A stretch of 64,000 nt of DNA, from assembly GCA_965208675.1 (NCBI GenBank), contig OZ242351.1, positions 2,720,001 through 2,784,000 of the forward strand, read 5' to 3'. A program made the position numbers and the translations under genes. Source of the stretch: Candidatus Poribacteria bacterium. Lineage in GTDB: Bacteria; Poribacteria; WGA-4E; PCPOR2b. This document shows positions 35,226 through 59,444 of the stretch, piece by piece. The first letter of the stretch is position 1. Every line of letters begins with the position of its first letter. The notes under the pieces were generated by a model. The model searched no databases. It saw only the letters and a list, made by a program, of their open reading frames with translations, and was not told where the DNA came from.

Positions 35226-36710
35226 TCAGTATATTACCCTTTCCTCCCTAAATAATTCGCCCATCATTATATTACCCTTCCCATCATAAATTCGCCACTC
35301 CCCATCCACTTTTCGCATTTTAAGAACGAATCCAGTGTTCCTGGGGCTATCCGACGTTGGCGCTTCTAATCGGAAATGAAATTCATCGCCGACATATTCA
35401 CTACTCACAATCTCTATCTGACTATAACCCTCCCGCATCTTCGACTGTCCTTCCGGAGTTTGAATTGCATCCAGTCCCTTCAGTATAGACTGAATCACAG
35501 ATTCTCTCGTCTTTTCTACTAACGCTTCTGGCACCCCTTCTGGAAAATTATCTTCAATTGCATTTAAGGTTTCATTTACAAATTCTTCTGGAAACTCCCC
35601 TCCGAGGAAACGTAAACTAGTTTCAATATGATCTCTGTAAGCTCCTGTCACAAAGGGGAGAGTTTCCTCTAAATCCACATTCTTAAGTGCTTCCACATAA
35701 GCGTTCATCACCTCTTCGGCGGATAAGATTGTGCCTTCTGATGCAACGGATGAATCGGTTTCGCCTGATTCGGAATCCTGATTAGATGCCCCGTCCGTTG
35801 CTAGTTGCGACGCCTGCGTTTCCGATTGTTCGTCGGCACCTTCTAGATGATCGAAGAAGTCCTCAATTTGCAGCATCTCTTCTGCGGAGATTTGCGGCTT
35901 ATTTTCGGGTAAAGGTGCGCTGACCGCGCCTTTACGAGCGGTGTCCGTTTGAGCGACCGAGGTTTCAGACTCAGTTGGCGTCGAAGCTACAATCTCAACC
36001 GATGGAGACGAATCTTCTTTCGACGATATGAACTGGCGCGTTCCGATGAAGGCGAGTACAATGATGGCTACCGCCCCGGCGGTGATTTTGGGTACTGTTC
36101 CAACTTTCATGACCGTTAATCCTCCTGAGTAGATTTGTTTGAGTGTGGGCATCGGAGAAACAAACACACCAGTAAGCAGATGACCCAATCGTTTGGCGAG
36201 TTTCTGCTTGGCGCGCGAGAGCCGAAACGAAATCGCCTTGTATGACAACCCATGCGTCCGAATCAGTTCGTCGTAGCCTGCGCCTTCAAGATAGTACGAG
36301 CGAGCGATTTCCCTATCTTTTTGCGGCAACGTTTCAATCGCGCGGCGAATCAGTTCCCTCTGTTCGCGGCGTATCAACTGTTCGTCGGGTGCGTCCGGGG
36401 TTAGGAGTGTGTGTGCGCTCGCTTCATCAATGGAAACAGTATTGACACGCTGTTTTCGCAACCAATCTCGTGCACTGTTTCGGGCAATCTCTGCCAGCCA
36501 GTATTTGAATTTTTCCCGATCCTCATACTGCACCAAGCCACGGTAGGCGTTGAGAAAGGTGTCTTGCACAATCTCTTCGGCATCGTTCGGATTGTTTACA
36601 AATCCGATTACAACCGCATAAACAAAGGCGTAATGCACCCGCATTAACTCCGTGAATGCACCTTCGTCCCCCGCTTGAACGCGGTAAATCAGATCTTTAG
36701 TGTTAGCCAC
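35226..36710 (-). CDS. ECF sigma factor with TM anchor and extracytoplasmic NTF2-like C-terminal domain (array copy 1)
   Basis: sigma2 DAEEIVQDTF…WLAEIARN; sigma4 LPQKDRE…SYKAISFRLSRAK; TM AGAVAIIVLAFIG; VGDEFHFRL…KMRK..G.WRIY. Confidence 0.93.
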   Translation of the reverse strand: MANTKDLIYRVQAGDEGAFTELMRVHYAFVYAVVIGFVNNPNDAEEIVQDTFLNAYRGLVQYEDREKFKYWLAEIARNSARDWLRKQRVNTVSIDEASAHTLLTPDAPDEQLIRREQRELIRRAIETLPQKDREIARSYYLEGAGYDELIRTHGLSYKAISFRLSRAKQKLAKRLGHLLTGVFVSPMPTLKQIYSGGLTVMKVGTVPKITAGAVAIIVLAFIGTRQFISSKEDSSPSVEIVASTPTESETSVAQTDTARKGAVSAPLPENKPQISAEEMLQIEDFFDHLEGADEQSETQASQLATDGASNQDSESGETDSSVASEGTILSAEEVMNAYVEALKNVDLEETLPFVTGAYRDHIETSLRFLGGEFPEEFVNETLNAIEDNFPEGVPEALVEKTRESVIQSILKGLDAIQTPEGQSKMREGYSQIEIVSSEYVGDEFHFRLEAPTSDSPRNTGFVLKMRKVDGEWRIYDGKGNIMMGELFREERVIY

Positions 36711-36746
36711 TGTTCTTCATTCCTCCTTATACCCCTTAATCAAACA

Positions 36747-36774
36747 TAACGACGTTCTGCGATTTTTTCTAGCA
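36747..36774 (-). promoter_or_regulatory. Putative ECF autopromoter GCTAGAA-N15-CGTT
   Basis: TAGAA-N15-YGTY conserved with exact spacing upstream of all five paralogs. Confidence 0.7.
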
Positions 36775-36789
36775 CTTTTTTTGAAGATG

Positions 36790-36900
36790 TAACTGTCTGA
36801 ATCAGGATTTACCGGATTAAAGGATTCCCAGGATATCAGATTAGTCGCGGGTTGAAAATAAAAAAGGCGAATGGGTTGTACCATTCGCCACGTGAAGTCT
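36790..36900. repeat. Array spacer repeat (TGTCTGAATCAGGATTTACCGGATTAAAGGATT… plus hairpin), copy A
   Basis: Similar copies at about 38470, 41453, 43061, 47886, 51348 (split) and 56061. Confidence 0.92.
36856..36889 (-). terminator. Intrinsic terminator GGCGAATGG-loop-CCATTCGCC-T-tract
   Basis: 9-bp GC-rich stem followed by TTTTTTATTTT on minus strand; repeated in each spacer. Confidence 0.85.
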
Positions 36901-36927
36901 TTGGGAATAGAGTTGGGAGTTTGTTGA

Positions 36928-38397
36928 TTATTCCCTTGCATAAATTATCCACACTCCATCAACATTCCGCATCTTAACGAGGCGCATTATGCTTTCTGGT
37001 GGCTTTGGAAACCCTGGAGGAAGCTCTCCCAATCCCGGTAGTTTTGGCATCGGCACGCTCAATCGGAAGTGAAATTCATCACCGACATATTCGCTCCTCA
37101 CAATCTCCATCTCCCCATACATTTCCTGTGCCATTTGCCGTATCTTCGCCTGCACTTTTGAATTCTGGTTAATCTCCAACATCATTTGCTGCAGACTATC
37201 CATCTGTTTTTCTGACATCGCTTCTTTTTCTTTCGACATCTCGTCGGAAATACGATCTGCTACGTCTTCTGAAAACCCATCACTGAAGATGTGCAAAGTA
37301 GTTTCAATGTGATTTCTGGCGGTCCCATCTACGTACGGGAGCAATGCCTCAAAGTCAAAAGTCCTATATGCATCGAGATAAGTATCCATCAACTCTTCGG
37401 CGGCAAAACTAGCGCTTTCGGCTTCAAAAGATGAATCAGTGACATTGCCTTTTTGAAAATCTTGATTGGTTGTCTCGTGCGTTGCTAGTTGTGAGATAGC
37501 GGCCTCCGATTGCGCGTCTGACTCATCAAGGTGAGCGAAAAAGTTTTCGATTTGCTGCATCTCCTCTGCAGAGATTTGCGGTTTGTCTTCAGGCACAGAC
37601 GCGACGACTGCGCTTTTACGAGCGGCGTCCGTTTGAGCGACCGAGGTTTCAGGCTCAGTTGGCGTTGAAGCAACAATCTCTTCCGATGGCGACGAATCTT
37701 CTTTCGACGATAGGAACTGGCGCGTTCCGATGAAGGCGAGTACAATGATGGCTACGGCCCCGGCGGTGATTTTGGGTACTGTTCCAACTTTCATGACCGT
37801 TAATCCTCCTGAATAGATTTGTTTGAGTGTGGTTATCGGAGAAACGAATACACCAGAAAGCAGATGACCCAACCGCTTGGCGAGTTTCTGTTTGGCGCGT
37901 GAGAGTCGAAACGAAATTGCCTTGTATGACAACCCGTGCGTCCGAATCAGTTCGTCGTAGCTTGCGCCTTCAAGATAGTACGAACGCGCGATGTCCCTAT
38001 CTTTTTGCGGCAAGGTTTCCATCGCGCGGCGAATCAGTTCTCTCTGTTCGCGGCGTATCAACTCTTCGTCAGGTGAATCCGCGGTTTGAAGCGTACCTTC
38101 GCTCACCTCGTTGATGGATACGGCGTCGATTCGTTGTTGTTCTCGCAACCAGTTTAAGGCTCGATTTCGCGCAATTTTTGCGAGCCAGCCTTTGAATCTT
38201 TTCGTATCCTCAAGTTGTGGCAAACCGCGGTAAGCGTTAAGGAAGATTTCTTGGACAACTTCCTCGGCGTCGTTGGGATTGTTTACGATTCCGATTACAA
38301 TCGCATAAACGAAGGCATAATACGCCTGCATTAACTCAGTGAACGCACCTTCGTCCCATGTTTGGGCGCGAGAAATGAGGGCGTTGTCGTTATCCAC
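36928..38397 (-). CDS. ECF sigma factor-TM-NTF2-like fusion (array copy 2)
   Basis: Same architecture as copy 1; GTG start, SD GGAGG. Confidence 0.93.
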   Translation of the reverse strand: MDNDNALISRAQTWDEGAFTELMQAYYAFVYAIVIGIVNNPNDAEEVVQEIFLNAYRGLPQLEDTKRFKGWLAKIARNRALNWLREQQRIDAVSINEVSEGTLQTADSPDEELIRREQRELIRRAMETLPQKDRDIARSYYLEGASYDELIRTHGLSYKAISFRLSRAKQKLAKRLGHLLSGVFVSPITTLKQIYSGGLTVMKVGTVPKITAGAVAIIVLAFIGTRQFLSSKEDSSPSEEIVASTPTEPETSVAQTDAARKSAVVASVPEDKPQISAEEMQQIENFFAHLDESDAQSEAAISQLATHETTNQDFQKGNVTDSSFEAESASFAAEELMDTYLDAYRTFDFEALLPYVDGTARNHIETTLHIFSDGFSEDVADRISDEMSKEKEAMSEKQMDSLQQMMLEINQNSKVQAKIRQMAQEMYGEMEIVRSEYVGDEFHFRLSVPMPKLPGLGELPPGFPKPPESIMRLVKMRNVDGVWIIYARE

Positions 38398-38427
38398 AGT
38401 TTTTCGTTCCTCCGTTGCATTATATTA

Positions 38428-38590
38428 AGACACTGTTCTGCGATTTTTTCTAGCACTTTTTTGTGATGTAACTGTCTGACTCAGGATTTACCGGATTAAA
38501 GGATTCTCAGGATATCAGATTTTTCGCGGGCAGAAAATAAAAAAAGGCGAATGGGTTGAACCATTCGCCTTGTGAAATCTTGGGGAATAC
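38428..38590. repeat. Array spacer copy B (promoter GCTAGAA-N15-TGTC, repeat, terminator)
   Basis: Near-identical to copy A. Confidence 0.9.
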
Positions 38591-38618
38591 GGTTGTGGGT
38601 TTGTTAAGAGTTCCGCTT

Positions 38619-41360
38619 TTAATACAAATAATTAACTTCGTAAATTTGCCATGCACCGTTCTCTTTTCGCATCTTAACAGACGTACCCGGCATCTCTAGG
38701 TGCTCGGGCATCTCCGGCAGCTCTATCCCCTGTAATTCGGGCATCTCCGATATGTCCGGTATCTCTATTTTCGGCATGGCTATTTTCAATTGGAAGTGGA
38801 ATTCATCGTCGACATATTTACTGGTCACAATCTCAACCTGACTGAACATTGATCGCACCATCGGATTCTGCATCGTATCGTTTAACATCTGAATCATACC
38901 GTCCGCCATTTCTTCTGATAACCCAATGTCATTATAATATATATCAACAAGCTCATCCGGAAGCTCACCGTTAAACATGCCTATAAGACCCGTTACCACT
39001 GGTCGGGCAGTGCCTGTCACATACGGCAGCATCGTCTCAAGTTCAAGCTTTCTATACGCCTCTATATAGGCATTCATCAACTCTTCGGCGGATGCATTCG
39101 CGTCGGTTGTGCTGGACTCGGTTTCAGATTCAGACGGTAGTTGGGAGGTGTCCACTTCCGGTTCTTCGATTTGACCGAGGGAGTCCTTGCCAACGATGAC
39201 GGTGGCGCGCTTGTTTCGAGGGAATACACTCGCCGCCAGGTGCTGCATGTCTGCATCGGTAACGCGCTGGATGGCATCACGCAATTCGTTGCCATCCAGT
39301 TTCAGTTGATACCGACGACCGGTGCTGAAAGCTAAACCGTAAAGGTTTTGCGCCCACATGGCATCCGGCACCTCAACTGTGCCCAACATTGCCATTGAGT
39401 TAAGCGTTCGCTGTTTGTCCTCCGGTGTAAGTTTTGTCGCCAACGCCGTGTTTAGGCGTTCGTCGAGTTGAATCAGTGCAATATGGTCGTCTGTGTCAGA
39501 TTGTAGGTCGGTTTGGAGCACAAGTGTGGTATCATCCTCCAGCGGTGTGAAGTACACACGCGGTGTTTTACCCGGCTGAAAGACGAACTGTGCGCTTGCC
39601 CACAAACGCGAGACAACTATCAGGAACGGCGCGTACTCCTTACTCCCGGGTCGGGGTGCAGCATATCCAATCGCTGCGACGCCGGTCGTATCGTCGTTCA
39701 CAGGTTCTGCAGTAAGCAACCGCAGCCCGCCGGTCAATGCTATAGACTTGCGCGGTTTAATAGGGGGCGACACGCTGGGCGAAATGTGACCGAAGTTTTG
39801 GTGAATCAACTGCCGCGCTTCGGCAACGTCAAACCCGCCTGCGATGGCAAGAATGGCGTTGTTCGGTTTGTAGTAATTCTGCCAAAATTGCTGGAGCTCG
39901 TCGAGCGTCATAGTCTCGATGTGCTCGGGCGCGACGCCGACGCGTCCGCCTTCGAGAATCGTGTGCAAGTGAGCTCGAACACTGTTTAAACCGACCAGCG
40001 ACGGGACGCCACTATACATGTTCCTCAACTCCGCCATCACGCGAGGCACCTCACGATTCAGATCGGCTTGGGTAATGCGTAGGTCATTCATGCGGGTAGC
40101 CGCGTCCTTCAATTCGGACGCGAATTGTTTTGCTTCGACGACCCCGGCAAAAACGGTGTAGTCAAATCCCGTGTGCGAGTTCCAGCCTGCAACATAGCGT
40201 GCCTGAAGCTGTATGGCGCCGCGCGCTGGGGAGTCGCCGGCTGCAGCGGTATAATACAGGTGTTCAAGCAGGTGTGCTCTGCCGGACTTTCCGATCGGGT
40301 CGTGGTCTCCGCCCAAATTGAACAGCACTACAACCGCCACTTGGCTTGACGTGGGAACAGGGCGTAGAATGACTGTCAGCCCATTTTCCAGTTTGTACGG
40401 CGCCCGTATCTCGGTCTTTGAAATTTTAACCTCGGCGACGGAGTTGATCGGACTCGGTTGCTCGGGCGAATTACCGACAATCCCCGTGCCGTGTTCACCA
40501 AGAACCGTTGGCGGTTTGGCCCCCTCGGCCACGAGTTCCACCGGAATCTCTGCAAACATTGTCATCTGGATTTCGCTGGGAAGCGGTGAACTGGCCAGAT
40601 CGCCGGGCGTAGCAACTGGTCGGAGAAATTGATTGAAAAGCATAAAGGTAAGTACTATCCCGACGGTCGCTGAACCGATGAATGGAAGCAACGGCTTCGT
40701 TGAAATCGGTTGCACTTTGGTTGACTTAATGGCTTCGACGATTCGGAACGTAAAGCCTGACTGTAATTTTTTCTCTGCAAATGTGGTGTCTATCATCGAA
40801 ATCAACTCCTCCTTCAGTTTGGTTCTGGCTCGCATCAACCGTTGGTTCACGGTGTTGACAGAAGTCCCCAAAAACCGCGCAATCTCCTTGCTACTCAGAC
40901 CGCCAAGATAGTAGAGCGTCAACGTCTGTCGATAGATTTCCGGCAATTGATCAATCGCCTCACGGATGGATTCGGCTGCGGCTTCGCTTCGATAGGCATC
41001 AATTGACGGTGTGTCCAAGAGCGCCGTGTCTTGGTCCTCGATGTAGTCTCCATCTGGACGGCGTAATCGGGATGTGAGAAAATTTGTGCACGAATTAACC
41101 GTAATTGAGAACAGCCACGCTAAGAAGTTATCCCGTCGCTTGAGGGTAGGAAGTTTCTGATAGGCTTTAATAAAGACTTCTTGGGTGATGTCCTCAGCAT
41201 CGTGGAAGTTTCTAAGCTTTGTGTAAGCTAGGGCATAGACGCTCGACTTGTATTTATCAACGAGCAAGCCAAACGCCGCCGATTCTCCATTAAGGCATTT
41301 TCCGATGATGTATCCATCTTCTGTGTACACGGTTCTATTCCTCTCACCAAATGGCTTCAT
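38619..41360 (-). CDS. ECF sigma factor-TM-M16 (insulinase-family) peptidase-NTF2-like fusion
   Basis: sigma2 DAEDITQEVF, sigma4 LPEIYR…EIARFLG; TM; YKLENGL…AHLLEH inverted Zn motif; YYKPNNAIL; shared C-terminal domain. Confidence 0.9.
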   Translation of the reverse strand: MKPFGERNRTVYTEDGYIIGKCLNGESAAFGLLVDKYKSSVYALAYTKLRNFHDAEDITQEVFIKAYQKLPTLKRRDNFLAWLFSITVNSCTNFLTSRLRRPDGDYIEDQDTALLDTPSIDAYRSEAAAESIREAIDQLPEIYRQTLTLYYLGGLSSKEIARFLGTSVNTVNQRLMRARTKLKEELISMIDTTFAEKKLQSGFTFRIVEAIKSTKVQPISTKPLLPFIGSATVGIVLTFMLFNQFLRPVATPGDLASSPLPSEIQMTMFAEIPVELVAEGAKPPTVLGEHGTGIVGNSPEQPSPINSVAEVKISKTEIRAPYKLENGLTVILRPVPTSSQVAVVVLFNLGGDHDPIGKSGRAHLLEHLYYTAAAGDSPARGAIQLQARYVAGWNSHTGFDYTVFAGVVEAKQFASELKDAATRMNDLRITQADLNREVPRVMAELRNMYSGVPSLVGLNSVRAHLHTILEGGRVGVAPEHIETMTLDELQQFWQNYYKPNNAILAIAGGFDVAEARQLIHQNFGHISPSVSPPIKPRKSIALTGGLRLLTAEPVNDDTTGVAAIGYAAPRPGSKEYAPFLIVVSRLWASAQFVFQPGKTPRVYFTPLEDDTTLVLQTDLQSDTDDHIALIQLDERLNTALATKLTPEDKQRTLNSMAMLGTVEVPDAMWAQNLYGLAFSTGRRYQLKLDGNELRDAIQRVTDADMQHLAASVFPRNKRATVIVGKDSLGQIEEPEVDTSQLPSESETESSTTDANASAEELMNAYIEAYRKLELETMLPYVTGTARPVVTGLIGMFNGELPDELVDIYYNDIGLSEEMADGMIQMLNDTMQNPMVRSMFSQVEIVTSKYVDDEFHFQLKIAMPKIEIPDISEMPELQGIELPEMPEHLEMPGTSVKMRKENGAWQIYEVNYLY

Positions 41361-41452: not shown

Positions 41453-41580
41453 AACTGTCTGACTCAGGATTTACCGGATTAAAGGATTCTCAGGATAACA
41501 AATTTTTCGCGGGTTGAAAATAAAAAAGGCGAATGGGTTGAACCATCCGCCTTGCGAAGTCTTGTGGGATTGAGTTGCCG
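41453..41580. repeat. Array spacer copy C (repeat + terminator)
   Basis: Matches copy A. Confidence 0.9.
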
Positions 41581-41597: not shown

Positions 41598-42986
41598 CTA
41601 TTCATAAATTCGCCATGCCCCGTCCTCCTTTCGCATCTTAACAACGTTTTCTACGCTCTCCGGCAACTCTGGCATCTCGTCCAGTAGTTCCGCCCGTAGT
41701 TCTTCCGGCGTATCCCGCATCAGCGGTTCTATCAGTGCTCCAAATTGTGGTAAAGTTGTTCTCACTCGAAAATGGAATTCATCGCCAACATATTCGCTGC
41801 TTACAACCTCGGACCCGCCAAGCACCGGGCCGAACGTCAACTCAATCATCTGCTTGAGCTCTGGATTTTCCTCCATAAAATCTTTCATGTCCGGCAAAAC
41901 ACTTTCCAGCTCTTCTTTAGCAGCCCCTGTCAATAACGGGAGCATTGCCTAAAAGTCTAAATTCTTGGATGCCTCGATATAGGCGTTCATTACCTCTTCA
42001 GCGGATTGTTCCGTGTCTTCAACAACCGCATCGGTACTGATTGAGACATGCTGATCGAAGTCTTGCTGATGTGCGGCTTCTGCGTGTTGTGTTTTGTCCG
42101 ATTGTGCGTCCGCTTCATCGAGTTGAGCGAAGAAGTTTTCAATTTGCTGCATCTCCTCTGCAGAGATTTGTGGTTTGTCTTCAGGCACAGGCGCGACGAC
42201 TGCGCTTTTACGAGCGGCGTCCGTTTGAGCGGCGGAGGTTTCAGCCTCAGTTGGCGTTGAAGCAACAATCTCTACCGTTGGAGTCGAATCTTCTTTCGAC
42301 GAAATGAACTGGCGTGTCCCGATGAAGGCGAGTGCGATGATGGCAACTGCCCCGGCGGTGATTTTGGGAACGGTTCCAACTTTCATGACCGTTAATCCTC
42401 CTGAGTAGATTTGTTTGAGTGTCAACGCGGGAAAGGCGAATACACCAGTGAGTAGATGGCTCAACCGCTTGGCGAGTTTCTGCTTGGCACGCGAAAGCCG
42501 AAACGAAATCGCCTTGTATGACAACCCATGCGTCCGAATCAGTTCGTCGTAGCTGGCGCCTTCAAGAAAGTAGGAGTGAGCGATGTCCCTATCTTTTTGC
42601 GGCAGCGATTCCATGGCACGTCGAATTAGTTCTCTCTGCTCGTCGCGAATCAAGCTTTCGTCAGCAGACTCTGACAACTGAACTGCCCGCTCATCCACTT
42701 CATCAATAGATACGGTGTCCAACCGCTGTTCGCGTAACCAGTTTAAGGCTCGATTTCGCGCAATTTTTGCCAGCCAACTCTTGAGTTTGGTCTGCTCCTC
42801 ATACTGCGCTAAGGCGCAGTAGGCGTTGAGAAAGGTGTCTTGCACAATCTCTTCGGCGTCGTTGGGATTGTTCACGATTCCGATTACAACCGCATAAACG
42901 AAGGCATAATGCGCCCGCATCAATTCAGTGAATGCACCTTCGTCTCCCGCTTGGGCGCGAGAAATGAGCGTATCGTCGTTCCTCAC
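41598..42986 (-). pseudogene. ECF sigma factor-TM-NTF2-like fusion (copy 3) interrupted by an in-frame TAG at 41949-41951
   Basis: LDF*AMLP where paralogs have DFEA; both halves are in the same frame. Confidence 0.85.
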
Positions 42987-43019: not shown

Positions 43020-43189
43020 AACACAGCTTTTGAGATTTTTCTAGCACTTTTTGGGTATTTAACTGTCTGAATCAGGATTTACCGGATTAAGGGATTCTCA
43101 GGATAACAAAATACACGCGGGTTGAAAATAAAAAAGGCGAATGGGTTGAACCATTCGCCTGGTGAAGTGTTGAGGAATTCGGTTGCGGG
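43020..43189. repeat. Array spacer copy D (promoter GCTAGAA-N15-TGTT, repeat, terminator)
   Basis: Matches copy A. Confidence 0.9.
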
Positions 43190-45073
43190 TCATCGAGAGA
43201 CATCCCATAAAAGCACTGTTCCGTCGTAACTTCCACTCCCCAGCGTGCTCCCATCCGGGTTGAATGCCAGGGTACTAATGTACGACGTATGCCCCTTCAA
43301 GCTTCGTCGCTGCGTCTCCGTCTTGGCATCCCACAGAAGGATGATTGCGTCGGCATCCCCACTCGCAAGCGTTCGTCCATTCGGGCTAAACTCTACCGCG
43401 GTAACATCTGCCGAGTGACCGTTTAGCGTTCTACGGTGCGTCCCCGTGGCAGCATTCCAAAGCTGGACGGAATGGTCGCCGCTCCCACTGGCTATCTTGT
43501 TTCCGTCTGAGCTAAAGGCGACGCTCGTGATGTCCGCGGTATGACCCTTTAGTGTTCGGCGGTGCGCGCCCGTGGCGACATCCCAAAGTCGGATGGTTGC
43601 GTCGGTGCACCCGCTTGCCAACGTCGCGCCGTCTGGGCTGAACGCAAGCGTCGAGCGAGCCGGCCTGTAAACGCGAGGAACGGTGTCCGACGCCTCCCAG
43701 TGCAGGTTATGCAGTTGCGCACCCGTCTCGGCATTCCACAGGCGGATAGTTGTTTCGCCGTTCCAACTTGCTACCGCTGAGCCATCCGGGCTGAACGCTA
43801 TGCTGTGGTCTACGCCGTCATCGTTTCGTAATGTCCGCAGATATGCACCTGTCTTTACATTCCAAAGGCAGACGGAATGATGCCCATTTCCACCTGCTAA
43901 CGTTAGCCCATCCGGGCTAAATGCTATGCTATGGGCCTCTGATAAATACCGGTCCAGTGACCGCTTGTGCTCGCCTGTCACAGCATCCCATAAACGAATG
44001 GGATTCAACCGGCTCGCACTTGCCAACGCCGCACCGTTCGGGTTGAACGCTATGCTAATGACGGGTTTTATATGTCCATCCAGCGTCCCTAAGTGCGTAT
44101 CCGTCACCGGATTCCACAGGCGAATTGTCCCGTCGTCACTCCCGCTTACCAACGTTGCACTATCCGGGCTGAAGACGACATGAGTGACCCAACCCGTATG
44201 TCCTTCTAGCTCCCGCAGCCGTGTTCCTGCCGCGACATTCCACAATCCGATGGTCGTGCCAGGCCCACCACTTGCCAAGATACTGCCATCCGGGCTGAAC
44301 GCGACGCTCGAGACCATAGGTATGCGTTCTTCCAGTTGCCAAAGGTGTACTCCGGTCTTAGCGTTCCAAAGTCGGATGCTATCGCCCCAACCGCCGCTTG
44401 CCAGTACGCTGCCATCTGGGCTGAACGCGACCGCGGTGGCATACTCCGTGTGACCTTCCAGAGTTCGTACAGGTACGCCTGTCTCCACATCCCACAGACG
44501 AATAGTCTTGTCATAACTTGCGCCTGCCAACGTCGAGAAATCCGGGCTGAACGCGGCGGTACCAACGGAATATGTATCTCCCTGCGGAGTACGCAGTTCC
44601 AGTGACCGCGTATGTGTTTTAGTCTCGACATCCCACAGATGAACGGTCGTCTGCGACACACCTGCTAGTGTGCTGCCATCCGGGCTGAAAACCACGTTCA
44701 AGGTGCCCTCTGATTTTGCCTCCAGTGTATGTAGGTGTAAACCCGTCACGGCATCCCACAGACGAACGGTATTGTCCGAACTTCCACTCGCTAGCATGCT
44801 GCCATCCGGGCTGAACACTACGCTCGCCACAATTCCCGAATGTCCGGTGAGCAGAGCTATCTCTTGATGGGTCGTTGTATCGTAGAGCCAGATACCGATT
44901 CCGCTGCCGACTGCAAGCCGAGCGCCATCGGGGGAATACTGTATTTGACCTATCGCCCCCTTTCCGATCCGCGCTACAACCCCTTCAGGCAAACCCCACT
45001 GCGAGGCATCTTGCGAAAAGGCGTTGCACAAGGTCAAGGAGAACAGTATATGCAAGGATAAAACTGTTTTCAT
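43190..45073 (-). CDS. Secreted WD40-repeat protein (about 14 blades)
   Basis: Signal peptide, 'WGLPEG..ARIGKG' leader, GH…FSPDG..LASGS.D.TIRLWD repeats. Confidence 0.95.
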   Translation of the reverse strand: MKTVLSLHILFSLTLCNAFSQDASQWGLPEGVVARIGKGAIGQIQYSPDGARLAVGSGIGIWLYDTTTHQEIALLTGHSGIVASVVFSPDGSMLASGSSDNTVRLWDAVTGLHLHTLEAKSEGTLNVVFSPDGSTLAGVSQTTVHLWDVETKTHTRSLELRTPQGDTYSVGTAAFSPDFSTLAGASYDKTIRLWDVETGVPVRTLEGHTEYATAVAFSPDGSVLASGGWGDSIRLWNAKTGVHLWQLEERIPMVSSVAFSPDGSILASGGPGTTIGLWNVAAGTRLRELEGHTGWVTHVVFSPDSATLVSGSDDGTIRLWNPVTDTHLGTLDGHIKPVISIAFNPNGAALASASRLNPIRLWDAVTGEHKRSLDRYLSEAHSIAFSPDGLTLAGGNGHHSVCLWNVKTGAYLRTLRNDDGVDHSIAFSPDGSAVASWNGETTIRLWNAETGAQLHNLHWEASDTVPRVYRPARSTLAFSPDGATLASGCTDATIRLWDVATGAHRRTLKGHTADITSVAFSSDGNKIASGSGDHSVQLWNAATGTHRRTLNGHSADVTAVEFSPNGRTLASGDADAIILLWDAKTETQRRSLKGHTSYISTLAFNPDGSTLGSGSYDGTVLLWDVSR

Positions 45074-45313: not shown

Positions 45314-47449
45314 TTACTGATAATCAATGTCATAAATTCGCCATTCATCAGCCTCTTTTCGCATCTTATAAGTCATATCCGGAATTTCCAGGTGGTCGGG
45401 CATCTCCGACAGTTCCATCCCCTCCGGCATTTCTATCCCTTGTAGTTCGGGCATTTCCGATACGTCCGGCATCTCTATTTTCGGTATCGGTATTCTCAAT
45501 TTGAAATGAAATTCATTGCCGACAAATTCACTGCTTACAACCGTTAACTGACTGTATATTGAGCGCAAGCCTGCTTGCACCATGGGATTGTTCATAGAAT
45601 CCTCCATCATCTGAACCGTGCCGTCCGGCATGGAATCTATAAGCTCTTCTGGAAACTCACCGCTAAACACGTCCATGGTACTTTTTACCTCTTCTAGGGC
45701 GGTGCCTGACAAATACGGGAGCATCGTATCAAGGTCAAGATTTTTATGTGCCTCTACAAAGGCGTTCATCACCTCTTCGGCGGATACGCCTGCGCTATCA
45801 ACGCTTAATCGTGCATCCGATTCTTCAGAAGAGAGCAGAGAAGCGCCGCCAACGATGACGGTGTCGCGTTTCTCTGGCGAGAATACATTCGCTGCCAGGT
45901 GCTGCATATCTACATCGGTTACACGCTGGATGGCATCGCGCAGATCCCCGCCATTTAGTTTCAGTTGATACCGGCGGCCAATGCTGAACGCTAATCCGTA
46001 CGGATTTTGCGCCCACATGGCATCCGGTACATCAACTGTGCCCATCATTGCCATTGAGTTTATCGTTAGCTGTTTGTCCGCCGGCGTGAGTTTCGGCGTC
46101 AATGCCGTGTTTAGGCGTTGGTCGAGTTGATCGAGCGCTGACTCAATGTCCGCCTCAATTTGCACGTCGGTCTGGAGCACAAGCGTGGTGCCATCGTCCA
46201 ATGGTGTAAAGTACACAGGCGGTGTTTTGCCCGGCTGAAATGCAGCCTGCGCGCCTGCCCACAAACGTGAGACAACTATCAGGAACGGCGCGTATTCCTT
46301 GCTCCCGGGTCGGGGTGCAGCATATCCAATCGCTGCGACGCCGGTCGTAACGTCGTTCACAGGTTCCGCGGTGATGAAGCGAATTGCCCCGGTCTTCGCT
46401 GCAGGCTTGGGCGGCTTTGCAGGCGGAGGCATACCGGACGGAATCAGGCTGAAGTTTTGGTCAATCAAATGCCGCGCTTCGGCAACGTCAAACCCGCCTG
46501 CGATGACAAGAACGGCGTTGTTCGGCTTGTAGTAATCCTGCCATAACTGCTGCAGTTCACCGAGAGTCATTGTCTCAATGTGCTCGGGCGCACCGCCGAC
46601 CCGTCCGCTTTCGGGGATGGGGTGCACCTGAGCTCGCACACGGTTTATGCCGACCAGCGACGGCACGCCGCTGTACATGTTACTCAATTCTGTCATCACG
46701 CGAGGCACCTCGCGGATTAGATCAGCTAAGGTGATTTGCAAATCGTTCATGCGCGCAGCCGCATCCTTCAACTCCAACGCGAATTGCCCTGCTTCGACGA
46801 CACCTGCAAAAACAGTGTAGTCGAACCCTGTTTGCGCGTTCCAGCCTGCAACATAGCGTTCTTGAAGCTTCATGGCGTCGCGCGCTGGGGTGTCACCGGC
46901 TGCAGCGGTGCAATACAGGTGTTCAAGCAGGTGTGCTCTGCCGGACTTTCCGATCGGGTCGTGGTCTCCGCCCAAATTGAACAGCACTACAACCGCCACT
47001 TGGCTTGACGTGGGAACAGGACGTAGAATGACTGTCAGCCCATTGTCCAGTTTGTACGGGGTTGGTATCTCAGAATTCGAAATTGTAGCGGCGGCGTTCA
47101 TCGAACTCGGTTGACCGGGCGAATTGCCGACAACCCCCGTTCCGGGCTCACCGGCAACCGTCGGCGGTTTGGAGGCATCAGCAACGAGTTCAACCGGAAT
47201 CTCTCCAATCATTGTCATCTGGATATCGCTGGGGTACGGTGAACTGGCCAGATCGCCGCGCGCAGCGGCTGGACGGAGCAATTGACTGAAAAACATAAAG
47301 GTAAGCACAATCCCGACTGCTGCTGAACCGATGAACGCAGGCAACGGCTTTGTTGAAATTGGTTGCACTTTGGTTGACTTAATAGCTTCCACGATTCGGA
47401 ACGTAAAGCCTGACTGTAATTTTCTCTCTGTAAATGTGGTGTCTATCAT
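45314..47449 (-). CDS. Sigma-less TM-M16 peptidase-NTF2-like protein, the intact remainder of an ECF-M16 gene
   Basis: Open from internal SD AAGGAGGAG-N9-ATG (47449); AHLLEH intact; closely similar to 38619-40796. Confidence 0.75.
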   Translation of the reverse strand: MIDTTFTERKLQSGFTFRIVEAIKSTKVQPISTKPLPAFIGSAAVGIVLTFMFFSQLLRPAAARGDLASSPYPSDIQMTMIGEIPVELVADASKPPTVAGEPGTGVVGNSPGQPSSMNAAATISNSEIPTPYKLDNGLTVILRPVPTSSQVAVVVLFNLGGDHDPIGKSGRAHLLEHLYCTAAAGDTPARDAMKLQERYVAGWNAQTGFDYTVFAGVVEAGQFALELKDAAARMNDLQITLADLIREVPRVMTELSNMYSGVPSLVGINRVRAQVHPIPESGRVGGAPEHIETMTLGELQQLWQDYYKPNNAVLVIAGGFDVAEARHLIDQNFSLIPSGMPPPAKPPKPAAKTGAIRFITAEPVNDVTTGVAAIGYAAPRPGSKEYAPFLIVVSRLWAGAQAAFQPGKTPPVYFTPLDDGTTLVLQTDVQIEADIESALDQLDQRLNTALTPKLTPADKQLTINSMAMMGTVDVPDAMWAQNPYGLAFSIGRRYQLKLNGGDLRDAIQRVTDVDMQHLAANVFSPEKRDTVIVGGASLLSSEESDARLSVDSAGVSAEEVMNAFVEAHKNLDLDTMLPYLSGTALEEVKSTMDVFSGEFPEELIDSMPDGTVQMMEDSMNNPMVQAGLRSIYSQLTVVSSEFVGNEFHFKLRIPIPKIEMPDVSEMPELQGIEMPEGMELSEMPDHLEIPDMTYKMRKEADEWRIYDIDYQ

Positions 47450-47792
47450 TGCAATTGACTCCTCCTTCAGTTTGGTTCTGGCTCGCATCAGCCAGTCGTT
47501 GACGGTATTGACGGAACGCTCAAACACTGCGCAATCTCTTTAGTAAATAGCCCCCTAGTATTTAACCCTTTGCTACGGGTAGAGAGATTCTGATACACTT
47601 AAAAAACATTACGTGCGCGGCATCCTCATCATTAATTAAGTTACTCAGCTTTGCGTAAGCGAGAGCGTAGACGCTCGACTTGTATTTATCAAAGAGCAAG
47701 GCAAATGCCGCCGATTCTCTATTAAGGCATTTTCCGATGATGTATCCATCTTCCGTGTACACGCTGCTGCTCCTCTCACTGAACGACTTCAT
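47450..47792 (-). pseudogene. Decayed ECF sigma moiety of the second ECF-M16 gene
   Basis: MKSFSERSSSVYTEDGYIIGKCL… then frameshifts/stops; about 220 nt shorter than the intact paralog. Confidence 0.85.
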
Positions 47793-47885
47793 TTTGTAAG
47801 ACAATGCAAAAGACTGAAAAATTACAAGGGTGGACAATTTCTGGGCGGAAAGAGAGGATAATTATTGAGGTGAATCTGTTGCCAA

Positions 47886-47990
47886 ACTGTCTGAATCCGT
47901 ATTTACTGGAATAAAGGATTCTTAGGATAACAGATTTGTCGCGGGTTGGAAATAAAAAAGGCGAATGGGTTGAACCATTCGCCTGGTGTA
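47886..47990. repeat. Array spacer copy E
   Basis: Matches copy A. Confidence 0.88.
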
Positions 47991-49768: not shown

Positions 49769-51271
49769 TCAATCGGATACTGATTCGCGCGAGTCCAATA
49801 TCTCACTCTCATAAACCCGCCACGCGCCATTCCCTTTCCGCATCTTGAAAAGTGTATTTGGCACAATGACGTCTGAGATTTCTATCCATGTAATCTCCGA
49901 CTTATCCGGCGCTGGTCCTCCCAATACAAAGTGAAATTCATCGCCGACATATTCGTTACGCACCACATCTAGCTGACTGAGAGATTTCAGCCACACGTTT
50001 CGCATCTTCCGCTCAAATGCCCCACTTCTTATCTCTTGTTCAATACTCCGCATCTGCTGTTCAGCCATCTGACGCATCTCAACCGGCAAATCCGACAAAT
50101 CTTTTAGCCTATCTAGCAGTTTAGCTAGTTCAGCCGGGTCTAGGATTGGGAAGTTGCCTGTCGCCGCCATGGCCCACTCTCCTTTGATGCGTCCTGTGGA
50201 TAGAGAGTGTACCGCTTCAAAGTCAAGATTCTGAAACCCTTTCACATAAGCGTTCATCACTTCTTCTGCGGATAAGTCCGTGTCTTCTGCTACAACAGGT
50301 GAATCGGTGTCGCCTAATTCGGAATCCTGATTAGATGCTTCATCTGTTGCTAGTTGTGGCGAATCTGCCTCCGATTGTGCGTCTGCACCCTCAAGTTGAG
50401 CGAAGAAGTCCTCAATCTGCCCCATCTCCTCCGCTGAAATTTGCGGCTTACCCTCACGCGAGGGTGCGGCGAACGTACCTTTACGCGTGGCGTCCGTTTG
50501 TGAGGCTAGGTTTGCAGACTCAGTTGATGTTACAATCTCGACCGTAGGGGAGTTATCCTCTTTCGACGATATGAACTGGCGTGTCCCGATGAAAGCGAGT
50601 ACAATGATGGCTACCGCACCGGCAGTGATTTTGGCAACTGTTCCAACTTTCATGACCGTTAATCCTCCTGAATAGAAATTTTTGAGTGAGGTTATCGGAG
50701 AAACGAACACACCGCTGAGCAGATGCTCCAACCGTTTGGCAAGTTTCTGTTTGGCGCGCGAAAGTCGAACCGAAATCGCTTTGTAAGACAGTCCGTGCGT
50801 ACTCATTAGTTCGTCATAGTCCGCACCGTCAAGGTAATAAGAGTGAACAATCTCCCGCTCTTTTGGAGAAAGCGTTCCAAGTGCGCGTCGAATCAGCTCC
50901 CTCTGTTCACTGAGAATCAACTGTTCGTCTGGCAATTCTTGCGTCTTGACGGTGGATTTACCGATTTCATCAAACAGGCTTAATTCGTCTATAGGAACAG
51001 TATCAATCCGTTGTTTTCTCAGCCAACTTCGTGCGCGATTTCGAGCAATCTCTGCGAGCCAAGTTTTGAATTTTGACCTCTCCTCATACTGCGCCAAACC
51101 ACGGTAGACGTTGAGAAAGGTGTCCTGGACAATCTCTTCGGCGTCTTGGGGGTTGTTCACCATATCGATGACGATTGCATAAACGAAAGAGTGATATGCC
51201 CGTATCAGATCGACAAATGCACCTTCATCCCCAGCTCGCGCGCGACAAATGAGTGCGCTGTCATTATCCAC
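49769..51271 (-). CDS. ECF sigma factor-TM-NTF2-like fusion (copy 4)
   Basis: Same architecture; upstream promoter AGTAGAA-N15-CGTT. Confidence 0.93.
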   Translation of the reverse strand: MDNDSALICRARAGDEGAFVDLIRAYHSFVYAIVIDMVNNPQDAEEIVQDTFLNVYRGLAQYEERSKFKTWLAEIARNRARSWLRKQRIDTVPIDELSLFDEIGKSTVKTQELPDEQLILSEQRELIRRALGTLSPKEREIVHSYYLDGADYDELMSTHGLSYKAISVRLSRAKQKLAKRLEHLLSGVFVSPITSLKNFYSGGLTVMKVGTVAKITAGAVAIIVLAFIGTRQFISSKEDNSPTVEIVTSTESANLASQTDATRKGTFAAPSREGKPQISAEEMGQIEDFFAQLEGADAQSEADSPQLATDEASNQDSELGDTDSPVVAEDTDLSAEEVMNAYVKGFQNLDFEAVHSLSTGRIKGEWAMAATGNFPILDPAELAKLLDRLKDLSDLPVEMRQMAEQQMRSIEQEIRSGAFERKMRNVWLKSLSQLDVVRNEYVGDEFHFVLGGPAPDKSEITWIEISDVIVPNTLFKMRKGNGAWRVYESEILDSRESVSD

Positions 51272-51304
51272 TGTGCTTCGTTCCTCTCTTGTACCTTAAC
51301 CAAA

Positions 51305-51600
51305 ACGCCGTTCTGCGATTTTTTCTACTACTTTTTTGGGTATTTTCTGTCTGAATCAGGATTTACTGGAGTAAGGATTTACACAGCTGAACACCCAAAG
51401 GTTCGTAGTAGGACAATTTAATGCCCGTTTTTACTTAAAAATATGTCAGGTCAAGGGTGTGAAGGACATACCGGACGCGCAATAAATTACGCTACTACAA
51501 GCTGAACTGCCTATGTCCTAGGAATACAGGCTTTTCAGGATAAAAAAATTTTCACGGGTTGAAAATGAAACAGGCGAATGGGTAAAAATAATTGCCTAGC
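51305..51600. repeat. Array spacer copy F, split by a REP-like insertion (about 51385-51525)
   Basis: First half 51348-51382, second half about 51527-51597; insert has GTAGTAGGACAATTTA…TAAATTACGCTACTAC arms. Confidence 0.75.
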
Positions 51601-54090: not shown

Positions 54091-54275
54091 AATTCTGTTC
54101 TCCCTACTGTGAATGGTTCGATTTACGTGCCGGCAGGCGGTTCAGACCGCGTGCGTTTTCGTTCGATTTTAGGGACTACCCGATTAAAGAATTTTTAGGA
54201 TAGCAGATTCTCCGATGAGGTGATACCCAAAGTGAAGAATTAGCTAGTTTAATACCCGTGCAGGAGGTTTTTCCT

Positions 54276-55949: not shown

Positions 55950-56060
55950 CTGGCACCTCCTTTAGGTACAATCCGTATGCTTCCCGTTGTGAAATCGGAA
56001 CTTCGGCCATATTCAACTACAAAATCCAGATAAATTTCTTGCCACTTTTATCGGGTGATA

Positions 56061-56170
56061 AACAGTCTGAATCAGGATTTACTGGATCAAAGGATTCTCA
56101 GAATAGCAGATTTTTAGCGGTATGAAAAGAAAAAAGGCGAATGGATTGAACCATTCGCCTTGTGTAGTTT
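56061..56170. repeat. Array spacer copy G
   Basis: Matches copy A. Confidence 0.88.
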
Positions 56171-56194
56171 TTGGACTAGGAATTCAGGTTAGTG

Positions 56195-56320
56195 ATGGTA
56201 CACCTCATCTTCAATTTCATGAATGTGCCATGTTCCACCGACGCTGGCACACCAAACGTTCTCCAGCGGAAGTGCAATTCATCGCCGACATGCACACTGC
56301 TCAAAATCCCGACCCAATAA
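56195..56320 (-). pseudogene. Degraded remnant of the array C-terminal domain
   Basis: Minus strand reads ILSSVHVGDELHFRW and, shifted, GGTWHIHE; sits just upstream of the spacer G terminator. Confidence 0.65.
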
Positions 56321-56658
56321 GGCTCTGTAGATATTTCACCTAACTAGACGACCGAATTAACGAAACCGAGAAACCCAAGATGGCATTCGGCAAGGCACTC
56401 AGACCAAGAAAAGATTCGCCGATAGTGCTTGGTTATGTTTTTAAACTATCCATTAGAGTCTTTCATGACAAAGACAGGCATTATAGCATTTAAGTGACGG
56501 CTTTTGGCACGCGGGAAACAACCGGCATTGCACCCCAGTAGGTTAAACTATACGAATGAATCATGTTCATTGGTGAAACCCTGAACTAACGACCCAACAC
56601 AGATGATTCGTGGCGCTGTCCCGCGCTTAGCGTGTAGCGTAATGGATTGCTCAAACCA

Positions 56659-57042
56659 TCAGCCGTGATACGGTATTGTGAGATTCTGATTCAGTTGTTT
56701 TCGATTGTTCTCTGATTTCCAAGAGGGAGAAGGTGCCGACAAAGAATTAAAATTATTAGTTGCTGAATTCCTCTCGCTAACCTCAGCTTTGTACGATTTT
56801 ATTAGATTGACTGTTGCCCACACAAACAACGCGATCGCAACCACCACAAACACAAACATAACCGGTCTTAGTTTTTCACTCCATGGTGTCCGTTTTCCCC
56901 AAGCCGCCGCTGCCGCGGAAAAGAGAAGCAACCCCGTCATGAATAACGTCTCTGTAGTAACACCCGTAACCGTGATTTGAATTAGTATAATAATCAATCC
57001 TATTACGAGGGTAACCAAGGCAATTCGTTTTTTGCGATTCAT
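56659..57042 (-). CDS. Small three-TM membrane protein
   Basis: Three hydrophobic helices after MNRKKRIAL. Confidence 0.6.
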   Translation of the reverse strand: MNRKKRIALVTLVIGLIIILIQITVTGVTTETLFMTGLLLFSAAAAAWGKRTPWSEKLRPVMFVFVVVAIALFVWATVNLIKSYKAEVSERNSATNNFNSLSAPSPSWKSENNRKQLNQNLTIPYHG

Positions 57043-57762
57043 AAAAACCCTTCCATAAATGAGCATATAGTCATGGCACAATTATAACGGCAGTTTCCAT
57101 TGTTATGCCGTTTAGCAATCGGTGTTTTTTCTTAGCCTCTCGAATTTGCTGTGAGATGGAACATTCCTCCACTCGTTGAAACACCTCATAATGATCATGT
57201 TTAACGAACTCGTAACCTTTTTGCAAGTCACGCTGCAGACGCACGCGCATTCATCATTCGAATACAAGATGTCCTCGTTCTTCAAACATATCGGCGAGGT
57301 GAATCCCTATAGAAACTGAAAATTTGCCATCTTCAGTTGTGTGTATAGCCATGAATTTATCAATGTCGCTACCTTCAACTGACGCAAGAGTGCCTAATCA
57401 TAGGGCAATCCGGAGATTCTCCTTATGTATCTCAAGGGCATTTAGGTGAGTTTTACGTGTTTGCCTGAAAGATTCACAAGCATGATCGATTCTCCTTATC
57501 AAGTGTACGTGATGCTGCTAGACATTGGTTTCTTTTACAGAAAGCTGTGTCACTATGGCATTCGGCGAGTCAAACTGAGCAAAGAACCAGTTTGTCACAT
57601 CTTCGACCGTTTTACACAAGCGTAACAATTCCGCCTCAGTGTCGTAACAATACACGGATTTTTACGGACGTAATCTGTGGTGTAAGCAACGGAACTGGAG
57701 CAAGGTGTTCCTTGATGAGAACTCATGGGGCGGGTTGCGAGTTATTGTGAAACTTCTCTCTA

Positions 57763-59196
57763 CTATTCATAAATCTGCCATGTACCGTTCTCTTTTCGCA
57801 TCTTATGAAGAAAGTCGGGCATTTCCGGCATCTCAGGCATCTGAAATGTCTCGGGAATCTCTGAAATGTCCTGCCCAAACCTTCCTAGCATCTCTGACAT
57901 TTCCGGCAACTGGCTCCTTAATCGAAAGTGGAATTCCTCGCCGACAAACTCACTGCTCACAATCTCTGCTTGACTAAACATCTGTTTAAGGATTGGTTGC
58001 ATCATTCCTTGTATCATCTGAAGTGTCTCATCTGCCTCGTCTTCTGGCAAACCACTATCATAAAAAATTTCCTCAATCTCTTGTGGTAACCCTCCTAAAG
58101 GCAAACTACTTTCAAACTCTTCTTTGGCTGCACCTGTCAGAAATGAGAGCATCGCGCCAGCGTCAAAATTCCGGAACGCCTTCAGATAAGCGTTCATTAC
58201 ATCTTCAGCGGATTGAGTGGTGTCTTCTGGCGTCGCCCATGAGTCGGTGGCATCGCCCGCATCGGCGTTCTTATCTAAGGCTTCGTCCGTTACTTGTTGC
58301 GACGTATCCGTCGCCGAATGCGAGTCTGCCTCGTCAAGTTGAGCGAAGAAGTCCTCAATCTGCTGCATCTCTTCTGCGGAGATTCGCGGTTTATCTTCAC
58401 GCGGGGGTGCGGTGACTGCATTACTTCGTATGGCATCCGTTTGGATGGCCGGTTGCGCGGACTCTGTTGAAGTCACAATCTCAACCGACGAGGACGTATC
58501 CTCTTCTGACGAAATGAACTGGCGCGTCCCGATGTAGGCTAGTATGACGACGGCTACTACCCCCGCGGTGATTTTGGGTATTGTTCCAACTTTCATGACC
58601 GTTAATCCTCCTGAATAGATTTTTTTGAGTGTCGACGCGGGAATAGCGAACACCCCAGTGAGCAGATGACCCAACCGCTTGGAGAGTTTCTGTTTGGCAC
58701 GCGAAAGCCGTACCGAAACCGCTTTGTACGACAACCCATGCGTCCTCGTCAACTCGTCGTAGCTTGCGCCTTCAATATAGTACGACCGGGCAATCTCCCG
58801 CTCACCTGGCGAAAGCGTCTCTATCGCACGGCGAATGAGTTCGCTCTGTTCACGGTGTATCAACTCGTCGTCCGGTGCATCCGAGGGCGATAGTGTGTGC
58901 TCCCCCACCTCATTGATGGACACGGTATCAATCCGCTGTTCTCGCTGCCAGTTGAGCGCACGATTTCGCGCAATTTTTGCCAGCCAGTTTTTAAACTTTT
59001 TCGCATCCTCGAGGTCTGGCAGGCCGCGATAAGCGTTGAGAAAAGAATCTTGCACGACCTCTTCGGCGTCTTGGGGATTTTTCACGATTCCGATAACAAT
59101 CGCATAGACATAACCATAATGCACCCGCAATAGATCGACGAATGCACCTTCGTCCCCGGATTGTGCGCGAGCAATTGTGTCCTCGTTAATAATCAC
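57763..59196 (-). CDS. ECF sigma factor-TM-NTF2-like fusion (copy 5)
   Basis: Same architecture; upstream promoter AGTAGAA-N15-TGTC. Confidence 0.93.
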   Translation of the reverse strand: MIINEDTIARAQSGDEGAFVDLLRVHYGYVYAIVIGIVKNPQDAEEVVQDSFLNAYRGLPDLEDAKKFKNWLAKIARNRALNWQREQRIDTVSINEVGEHTLSPSDAPDDELIHREQSELIRRAIETLSPGEREIARSYYIEGASYDELTRTHGLSYKAVSVRLSRAKQKLSKRLGHLLTGVFAIPASTLKKIYSGGLTVMKVGTIPKITAGVVAVVILAYIGTRQFISSEEDTSSSVEIVTSTESAQPAIQTDAIRSNAVTAPPREDKPRISAEEMQQIEDFFAQLDEADSHSATDTSQQVTDEALDKNADAGDATDSWATPEDTTQSAEDVMNAYLKAFRNFDAGAMLSFLTGAAKEEFESSLPLGGLPQEIEEIFYDSGLPEDEADETLQMIQGMMQPILKQMFSQAEIVSSEFVGEEFHFRLRSQLPEMSEMLGRFGQDISEIPETFQMPEMPEMPDFLHKMRKENGTWQIYE

Positions 59197-59444
59197 TGTG
59201 AGTTGTTCCTCTCTTTAACCTAATAAAGACACGGTTTTACGACTTTTTCTACTTCTTTTTTGCTTTCGTTCTCCTGTTGTTGCTATTTCCTTTCAAAACT
59301 GGGGGACGAACCATGCTGCGATTAGTGATTGCGGAACCAACTGACGCCGTGCTAAAATTGAAATTTGATTCCCTAATTCTTTCGCCGCTAGATGCCACCA
59401 TCGCGCATCATCCGACATAATACTCCGCTTGTCAGTTTGACACT

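Follow-up and report, generated by a model that had tools for sequence, protein, structure and literature searches.

Covariation between specificity residues and predicted autopromoters in eight paralogous extracytoplasmic function sigma factors of a Candidatus Poribacteria bacterium

Sigma genes of the window and their predicted promoters

The 64,000-nucleotide (nt) stretch of Candidatus Poribacteria bacterium DNA analyzed here (OZ242351.1, positions 2,720,001-2,784,000), hereafter referred to as the window, contains five paralogous genes for sigma factors of the extracytoplasmic function (ECF) type, each located downstream of a promoter-like motif that its own product is predicted to recognize. 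In these genes, in three further copies elsewhere in the genome and in homologs from related genomes, residues of the sigma domain covary with individual bases of the upstream motif, which is the subject of this report. All coordinates are those of the window, and promoter positions are counted by taking the YGTY block as -13 to -10 (numbering of Paget 2015, PMC4598750), which places the base 5' of TAGAA at -34 and the G of TAGAA at -31 with no adjustment. The sigma genes, their predicted promoters and the three codons concerned are as follows.

35226-36710, minus strand: sigma paralog 1, 494 amino acids (aa), with F162, Y62 and D82
36748-36773, minus strand: predicted autopromoter of paralog 1, GC TAGAA N15 CGTT, with C at -34, C at -13 and T at -10, and an A-tract just 5' of it
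36928-38397, minus strand: sigma paralog 2, 489 aa, with F162, L62 and N82
38429-38454, minus strand: predicted autopromoter of paralog 2, with C at -34, T at -13 and C at -10
41949-42986, minus strand: sigma paralog 3, 345 aa, interrupted by an in-frame TAG, with F162, Y62 and N82
43020-43045, minus strand: predicted autopromoter of paralog 3, with C at -34, T at -13 and T at -10
49769-51271, minus strand: sigma paralog 4, 500 aa, with V162, Y62 and S82
51304-51329, minus strand: predicted autopromoter of paralog 4, with A at -35, G at -34, C at -13 and T at -10
57763-59196, minus strand: sigma paralog 5, 477 aa, with V162, L62 and N82
59228-59253, minus strand: predicted autopromoter of paralog 5, with A at -35, G at -34, T at -13 and C at -10
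36525-36527, minus strand: codon 62 of paralog 1, Y (L in other copies), equivalent to RpoE F64 in the specificity loop and covarying with the -10 base
36465-36467, minus strand: codon 82 of paralog 1, D (S or N in other copies), equivalent to RpoE N84 and covarying with -13/-12
36225-36227, minus strand: codon 162 of paralog 1, F (V in other copies), equivalent to RpoE S172 and covarying with -34

The window contains six matches to the motif TAGAA-N15-YGTY; shuffled versions contain 1.61 on average, and 1 of 100 shuffles reached six. Five of the six sites lie on the minus strand (36771-36748, 38452-38429, 43043-43020, 51327-51304, and 59251-59228) and stop 31-37 nt 5' of the GTG start of an open reading frame (ORF) of 345-500 aa; the sixth (47024-47047, plus strand) has no ECF-type sigma ORF downstream. 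An earlier reading made from the DNA letters alone, here called the sequence-only reading, had described this motif with exact spacing before each of the five GTG starts, with five different variants and three protein segments that each follow one promoter position. The sites are indeed located there, all with an N15 spacer; the flank/-10 variants of paralogs 1-5 (GC/CGTT, GC/TGTC, GC/TGTT, AG/CGTT, and AG/TGTC) agree with that description, and the protein states (SFRL or SVRL, QYE or (Q/D)LE, and LAEIARN or LAKIARN) are as claimed in all five genes.

Across the family, the -10 element YGTY fits the sequence T-13 G-12 T-11 C-10, and the distance between the -35 and -10 elements equals that of Escherichia coli sigmaE, with G[C/G]TA[G/A]AA at -35 instead of GGAAC. 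A GAAC/AAAC block is also present immediately 5' of the -10 element in the spacers of all eight promoters (e.g., 36752-36756, minus strand). This block (TCNCNGAAC) is kept family-wide and resembles the canonical ECF -35 core, but it is misplaced. As a candidate for the true -35 element it was rejected, because no conserved -10 element lies 16-17 nt further on and the resulting transcription start would hit the ribosome-binding site.

The window paralogs are 60-73% identical to paralog 1. In the two of the five that were scanned against Pfam, Sigma70_r2 (E-values of 1.7e-15 and 2.9e-18) and Sigma70_r4_2 (1.1e-06 and 1.4e-08) were detected, with no region 3 and nothing besides sigma region 2 and region 4. 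The closest solved structures are those of ECF sigmas, including RpoE (E-value 5.4e-15), and the combination of region 2 and region 4 alone with a relationship to RpoE would assign the family to the ECF class. Along each protein, the sigma2-sigma4 portion is followed by a stretch of ~30 residues, a hydrophobic helix, an acidic Ser/Thr-rich linker, and a C-terminal domain of ~165 aa. Both the ~30-residue stretch and the hydrophobic helix are near-invariant between copies, and the C-terminal domain is divergent. Such an order, with membrane topology judged by eye from the sequence, suggests a membrane-tethered ECF sigma with an outer domain. No anti-sigma domain was detected by Pfam, in the two paralogs scanned, within the ~30 residues between sigma4 and the membrane helix.

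Covariation of sigma residues with promoter bases

The source genome is a single contig of 4.89 Mb, and its nearest DNA matches come from sponge metagenomes. A search of this genome with the sigma domain retrieves eight copies that share 61-99% identity, the next match being at 36%. The three copies beyond the window carry the motif 30-31 nt 5' of their GTG starts and combine GG/TGTT with V, Y, and K74/N82; GC/CGTC with F, L, and E74/D82; and GG/CGTC with V, L, and E74/D82. When the three rules of the sequence-only reading, derived from the five window genes, were applied to these unseen copies, 9/9 predictions were correct. Together, the eight paralogs fill 8/8 cells of a 2x2x2 code, each cell once, so that every copy is one position away from three other copies. 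With equal and independent states, the chance of a full code is 8!/8^8 = 0.0024, and the chance that three new copies fill the three cells left empty by the first five is 3!/8^3 = 0.012.

To extend this comparison, 41 genomes (the source genome and 40 relatives) were searched with a cut-off of E <= 1e-40. The family is present in 23/41 genomes, at 2-12 copies each, including 18/24 genomes of the same taxonomic family and 4/5 of one sister family; in two other families, 0/11 genomes gave a match at that cut-off. From 65 fetched regions, tblastn yielded 162 distinct homologs, of which 155 were kept after 5 at 47-50% identity were set aside as a sister subfamily and 2 with an unrelated upstream region were dropped. 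Mutual information (MI) with average-product correction, in which near-identical sequences were down-weighted, was then calculated over these 155 homologs for 40 promoter and 190 protein columns (7,600 pairs).

The highest-ranking pair joins Y62 and the last -10 base (z = 12.2), followed by F162 and the base 5' of TAGAA (z = 11.0), D82 and the first -10 base, -13 (z = 10.1), and D82 and the second -10 base, -12 (z = 9.7). Rank 5, between a spacer base and a linker residue, is taken to be phylogenetic signal, and ranks 6 and 7 join K158 and S161 with the G/A of TA[G]AA at -31 (z = 8.0 and 7.9). The couplings that the sequence-only reading had proposed for the loop residue Y/L with the last -10 base and for sigma4 F/V with the base 5' of TAGAA therefore stand at the very top of the larger homolog set. 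Its third pairing, of LA(E/K)IARN with CGT/TGT, fails beyond the source genome: the pair of residue 74 and -13 drops to rank 6,287 of 7,600. E/K74 (the equivalent of RpoE R76) was accordingly rejected as the -13 determinant, as T at -13 accompanies 86 E vs 18 K over the 155 homologs (86 E vs 14 K excluding the source genome) and about 0.7 of 5 phylogenetically independent pairs change in the same direction. The actual tracker of the first -10 base is residue 82 (D, S, N, or Q), which lies on the same helix eight residues beyond E/K74; the latter follows -13 in the source genome because it is fully linked there with residue 82.

Among the 147 homologs that remain when the eight of the source genome are subtracted, Y62 is accompanied by T at the last -10 base in 37/37 cases (41/41 over 155) and L62 by C in 98 of the 107 having a base (102/111 over 155). 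In the same set, V162 goes with G at the base 5' of TAGAA in 9/9 and F162 with C in 101/105, and the first two -10 bases are CG with D82 (10/10) and S82 (13/13) and TG with N82 (72/74); the 47 homologs with Q82 have TA (35), CA (10), or TG (2). For the -31 position, where the pairing is weaker, S161 is found with G in 64/66 and A161 with A in 60/87. The subset of 96 sequences with unambiguous spacing gives F-C in 64/65, V-G in 12/12, L162-G in 13/17, Y-T in 29/29, L62-C in 61/66, and N-TG in 71/72.

Alignment with RpoE, whose chain numbering in the alignment carries three extra residues, equates Y62 with F64, E74 with R76, N78 with N80, and D82 with N84 in the sigma2 portion, and S161 with R171, F162 with S172, S165 with F175, and R166 with R176 in the sigma4 portion. 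Lane and Darst 2006 (PMC1540707) describe bonds from S172 to the -34 base and from R171 to the -31' base, as well as a correspondence of S or T at 172 with G or A at -34. Todor et al. 2020 (PMC7776599) report R171/-31, S172/-34, and N84/-13,-12 as high-MI pairs over 41,665 ECFs, all three of them upheld by saturation mutagenesis. F64 and W73 have been described as pocket residues for flipped bases and N80 as a wedge (Fang et al. 2019, PMC6648896), and the L3 specificity loop has been reported to wrap the flipped C-10, with a loop swap switching specificity (Campagne 2014, via Paget 2015, PMC4598750). In the present family, the equivalents of RpoE 172, 171, and 84 covary with -34, -31, and -13/-12 (ranks 2, 7, and 3 and 4, respectively), and the specificity-loop residue 62 tracks the flipped -10 base (rank 1). 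The strong pairs are thus known contacts, which supports the promoter assignment and also means that the code itself is not new. The statement of the sequence-only reading that the sigma2 loop reads the flipped -10 base and sigma4.2 the -35 element agrees with the RpoE contacts (PMC1540707, PMC4598750).

That reading had also held simple descent to be insufficient, and two analyses concur. In an alignment of the eight copies (100 nt upstream and 600 nt coding), 150 biallelic informative sites define 69 different splits, the commonest of which group the copies unlike any of the three specificity splits. The Y/L split is confined to the -10 base and two positions of codon 62; the F/V split to -34, codon 162, and one further site; and the D,S/N split to -13 and codons 74 and 81, with the triallelic codon 82 left uncounted. 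Each specificity split thereby accounts for 3-4/150 informative sites, and no tract joins promoter with codon. Because no linkage block connects the two, descent or gene conversion is disfavoured as the explanation. On a FastTree phylogeny inferred from the 155 homologs after removal of the trait columns, residue 62 changed 6 times, each time together with the -10 base; 12 of the 17 changes of residue 162 fall together with a change at -34, and of the 14 changes of residue 82, 7 are matched by a change at -13 and 6 by a change at -12. When hypervariable columns are discounted, the pairs of residues 62, 162, and 82 are the top or joint-top columns on the tree; the -31 pair is not top. Independent pairs, counted on supported branches only, number 5 for Y62 (3 with the same direction of change, 0 with the opposite one, and 2 unchanged), 6 for F162 (about 4.8 same, 0 opposite), 5 for residue 82/-13 (4 same, 0 opposite), and 4 for residue 82/-12 (1 same, 0 opposite).

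Interpretation, insulation and alternative explanations

Building on the observed anatomy, covariation, and structural register, it is likely that the genome encodes eight tethered ECF paralogs, each of which autoactivates through its own promoter, with three residue-base read-outs setting specificity. The eight genes would be recent paralogs, each forming its own transcription unit with an ECF-type promoter read by its own product (positive autoregulation). Residue 162 in the sigma4 recognition helix would read -34 (F-C, V or L-G), residue 82 in the region 2.4 helix would read -13/-12 (D or S-CG, N-TG, Q-TA or CA), and residue 62 in the specificity loop would read the flipped -10 base (Y-T, L-C). 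After duplication, promoter base and residue would have changed jointly, and many times. Transcription is expected to start at the predicted promoters, and each sigma would presumably prefer its own promoter in vivo, such that the copies could act as the insulated, orthogonal switches that the sequence-only reading had envisaged.

Several observations weigh against this model. Nine L62 homologs, all from one genus and all with TATT promoters, carry T at -10; L162 occurs with C at -34 in 4 homologs, and A161 with G at -31 in 27/87. The -35 register is alignment-dependent in 56 homologs (40 with a block shorter by 1 nt and 16 with a longer one), and fixed spacing would pair F with G in 24/27 of the shorter-block class. 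In the sister subfamily (47-50% identity), the residue-82 rule fits 3/5 members and is reversed in 2, with L accompanied by C in 5/5. Phylogenetically independent pairs are few (4-8 per trait), and no single sign test reaches 0.05. The five-position code is unique within its own genome for 133/155 copies (23 genomes), and the other 22/155 share it with a copy in the same genome, so full insulation is not general. The -35 element lacks the canonical AAC and S occupies the position of RpoE F175; with these two features and the lack of a detected anti-sigma domain before the helix, the family appears to depart from canonical ECFs.

A further difficulty concerns the targets. A 36-nt weight matrix built from the family and applied to the 4.89 Mb genome finds 8 sites at 27.0-59.8 bits, each of them preceding one of the eight paralogs; the best of all other sites reaches 13.8. 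Neither the extended motif nor this matrix reveals a target beyond the eight autopromoters in the whole genome, and degenerate targets could escape the scan. The minimal form [GA][CG]TAGAA-N15-YGTY has 29 genome matches, 8 of which are the autopromoters, vs 22-30 matches at spacers of 12-18, which is no excess. These scans thus give no output of the system beyond the sigma genes themselves.

Among the alternatives, the code may be real and the paralogs not insulated, with partial discrimination linking the eight into a network or hierarchy of cross-activation in place of private loops. This is considered rather unlikely. The promoters differ by single bases and each copy is one step from three others, some copies in related genomes share their code as noted above, and the searches revealed no distinct regulons in need of insulation. 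On the other side, the three ECFs tested by Todor et al. 2020 were described as 'exquisitely sensitive' to single base or residue changes (PMC7776599), and the filling of all eight cells, each once, would be unlikely without pressure for distinctness. It is improbable that the upstream block serves a single shared factor (another sigma or a repressor) and that its variable bases are neutral. In favour of this, the spacer, the A-tract, and the GAAC before the -10 element are also conserved across paralogs; neutral bases, however, would not track the residues of the downstream protein in the register of the sigmaE-DNA complex, and the full motif stands before these eight genes only. More improbable still is that shared descent, or gene-conversion tracts that move promoter and codon together, produced the covariation with no functional coupling behind it. 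In its favour are the recent origin and often tandem arrangement of the paralogs, raw counts over 155 related sequences that overstate independence, and independent-pair sign tests of which none reaches 0.05. Against it, the DNA between promoter and codon carries none of the three splits, the dominant splits group the copies otherwise, base and residue change on the same branches, and the top pairs of 7,600 land exactly on residues known to touch those bases.

Returning to the eight autoactivating paralogs, a bolder extension is advanced tentatively, as a possibility: selection for mutual insulation may have led a young sigma family to occupy every state of a three-position binary code, which yields eight private loops one step apart, and each tethered sigma may act as a self-contained switch with no transcriptional output other than itself and its outer domain. 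The restriction of such promoters to the eight genes is what suggests self-contained switches. If true, the paralogs would serve as eight separate units for sensing or memory and would not govern regulons.

The read-out mechanism is already published as the ECF code, and the sequence-only reading had overrated its novelty in this respect; what is new is that a complete combinatorial set occurs naturally within a single genome. The case draws its strength from a clean natural experiment and not from a new mechanism. The same residue-base pairs and the same -35 to -10 geometry appear in Todor et al. 2020 and in the sigmaE code, but the published code was drawn from tens of thousands of ECFs pooled across many genomes, whereas the present set is one young family that differs by single steps and fills the complete 2x2x2 code. 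In the chimeric ECFs reported by Rhodius et al. 2013 (PMC3817407), -35 and -10 read-outs likewise combine independently into orthogonal pairs; there, domains of distant ECF groups were exchanged in the laboratory, whereas natural point changes with no block exchange are seen here. The SigI/RsgI system of Clostridium thermocellum (Li et al. 2023, PMC10575876) also comprises paralogous sigmas tied to membrane sensors, and a few -35 and -12 positions distinguish its related promoters. It differs in that SigI belongs to another sigma class, has a different -35 domain, and is paired with anti-sigmas that are proteins of their own, and the parts of that report drawn on here do not describe a complete combinatorial set. 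In the literature consulted, no natural ECF paralog family filling a complete combinatorial code in one genome was found.

Prior reading rules for ECFs were derived from huge pooled data sets and laboratory mutants, for which this family provides a natural counterpart: eight near-identical proteins in one cell present every residue/base combination, and more than 150 relatives repeat the same steps. It becomes testable how duplicated regulators become insulated and via which intermediates, and these close relatives offer candidate orthogonal switches that already exist as a set.

Outer domain, neighbouring genes and family-wide variants

The overall arrangement of sigma domain, membrane helix, and outer domain resembles that of fused-membrane sigmas such as IutY of ECF243 and members of ECF48/52/53 (e.g., SCO4117), which have been reported to be activated by regulated proteolysis (PMC8999054). 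As described in that source, the IutY and ECF48/52/53 proteins have an anti-sigma or zinc-finger domain before the membrane, whereas none was detected in the two scanned members of the present family, in which ~30 residues separate sigma4 from the helix; these proteins would thus act as tethered sigmas without being assigned to the IutY/ECF52 type. The sigma domain may be freed from the membrane by proteolysis, and the contrast between the near-invariant linker and helix and the divergent outer domain provides at most an indirect hint in this direction.

A model of the outer domain computed from a six-sequence alignment (predicted local distance difference test (pLDDT) score 81, predicted template modeling (pTM) score 0.71) shows six helices and then a sheet of four strands. 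For this domain, neither Foldseek (at E <= 0.001) nor Pfam returned a match. The weak Foldseek matches are mostly NTF2/SnoaL-like (template modeling (TM) scores of 0.2-0.38) and include the NTF2 domain of RsgI9, an anti-SigI factor; weak Atlas leads comprise DUF4878 and DUF3828 at 0.81 and unnamed clusters at 0.91. An NTF2-like fold of the modeled domain is thus a lead only.

Paralog 3 has an in-frame TAG (41943-41951, minus strand) where the other copies encode E, and its frame resumes in a 115-aa ORF (41598-41945, minus strand) that matches the outer domain. It represents either a truncated sigma without an outer domain or a pseudogene.

One further feature lies next to the promoter of paralog 3.

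43135-43160, minus strand: terminator-like hairpin, AGGCGAATGG-loop-CCATTCGCCT followed by a T-run, just 5' of the paralog 3 promoter

Near-identical hairpins are located at 41526-41553, 47959-47984, 56134-56161, and about 36860-36889 (minus strand), and they are found upstream of the promoters of paralogs 1 and 2. Because a hairpin with a T-run lies upstream of several promoters, the copies look like separate transcription units; paralog 1 is followed by convergent genes. The recurrent form consists of GGCGAATGG, a 6-nt loop, CCATTCGCC, and a T-run, and occurs after many genes. The same hairpin is present upstream of homologs in related genomes, and it may be a lineage-wide repeated terminator element.

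The neighbours in the window are functionally unrelated (WD40, PhyH, dienelactone hydrolase, Omp85-like, and others) and give no clue to a regulon. Between the sigma copies lies a gene for a 627-aa WD40 repeat protein with a hydrophobic N-terminus (43190-45073, minus strand). A 913-aa protein (38619-41360, minus strand) joins another ECF sigma domain, 32% identical to the five, to a membrane helix and an M16 peptidase pair, and ends in the C-terminal domain of the five paralogs (43% identity). About a dozen similar fusions of 860-1250 aa are encoded elsewhere in the genome. A degraded copy of the M16 fusion is found at 45314-47861 (minus strand), in which a 737-aa ORF begins inside sigma4 and a separate 99-aa frame (47562-47861, minus strand) corresponds to the N-terminal sigma2 part, leaving the sigma domain broken.

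Beyond the source genome, members of the sister subfamily (L059, L061, L063, L120, and L122) have their own promoter form, GGTAAGA-N15-YGTC or GCAAAAA, and two of them, orthologs in sister species, have D/N at residue 82 swapped contrary to the rule. In one genus (e.g., L071, L096, L103, and L112), tandem arrays with up to 12 copies per genome are present, with extra code letters (A at -31, A at -12, and C/T at -33) and spacer classes 1 nt apart. At least 20 five-position promoter codes are in use.

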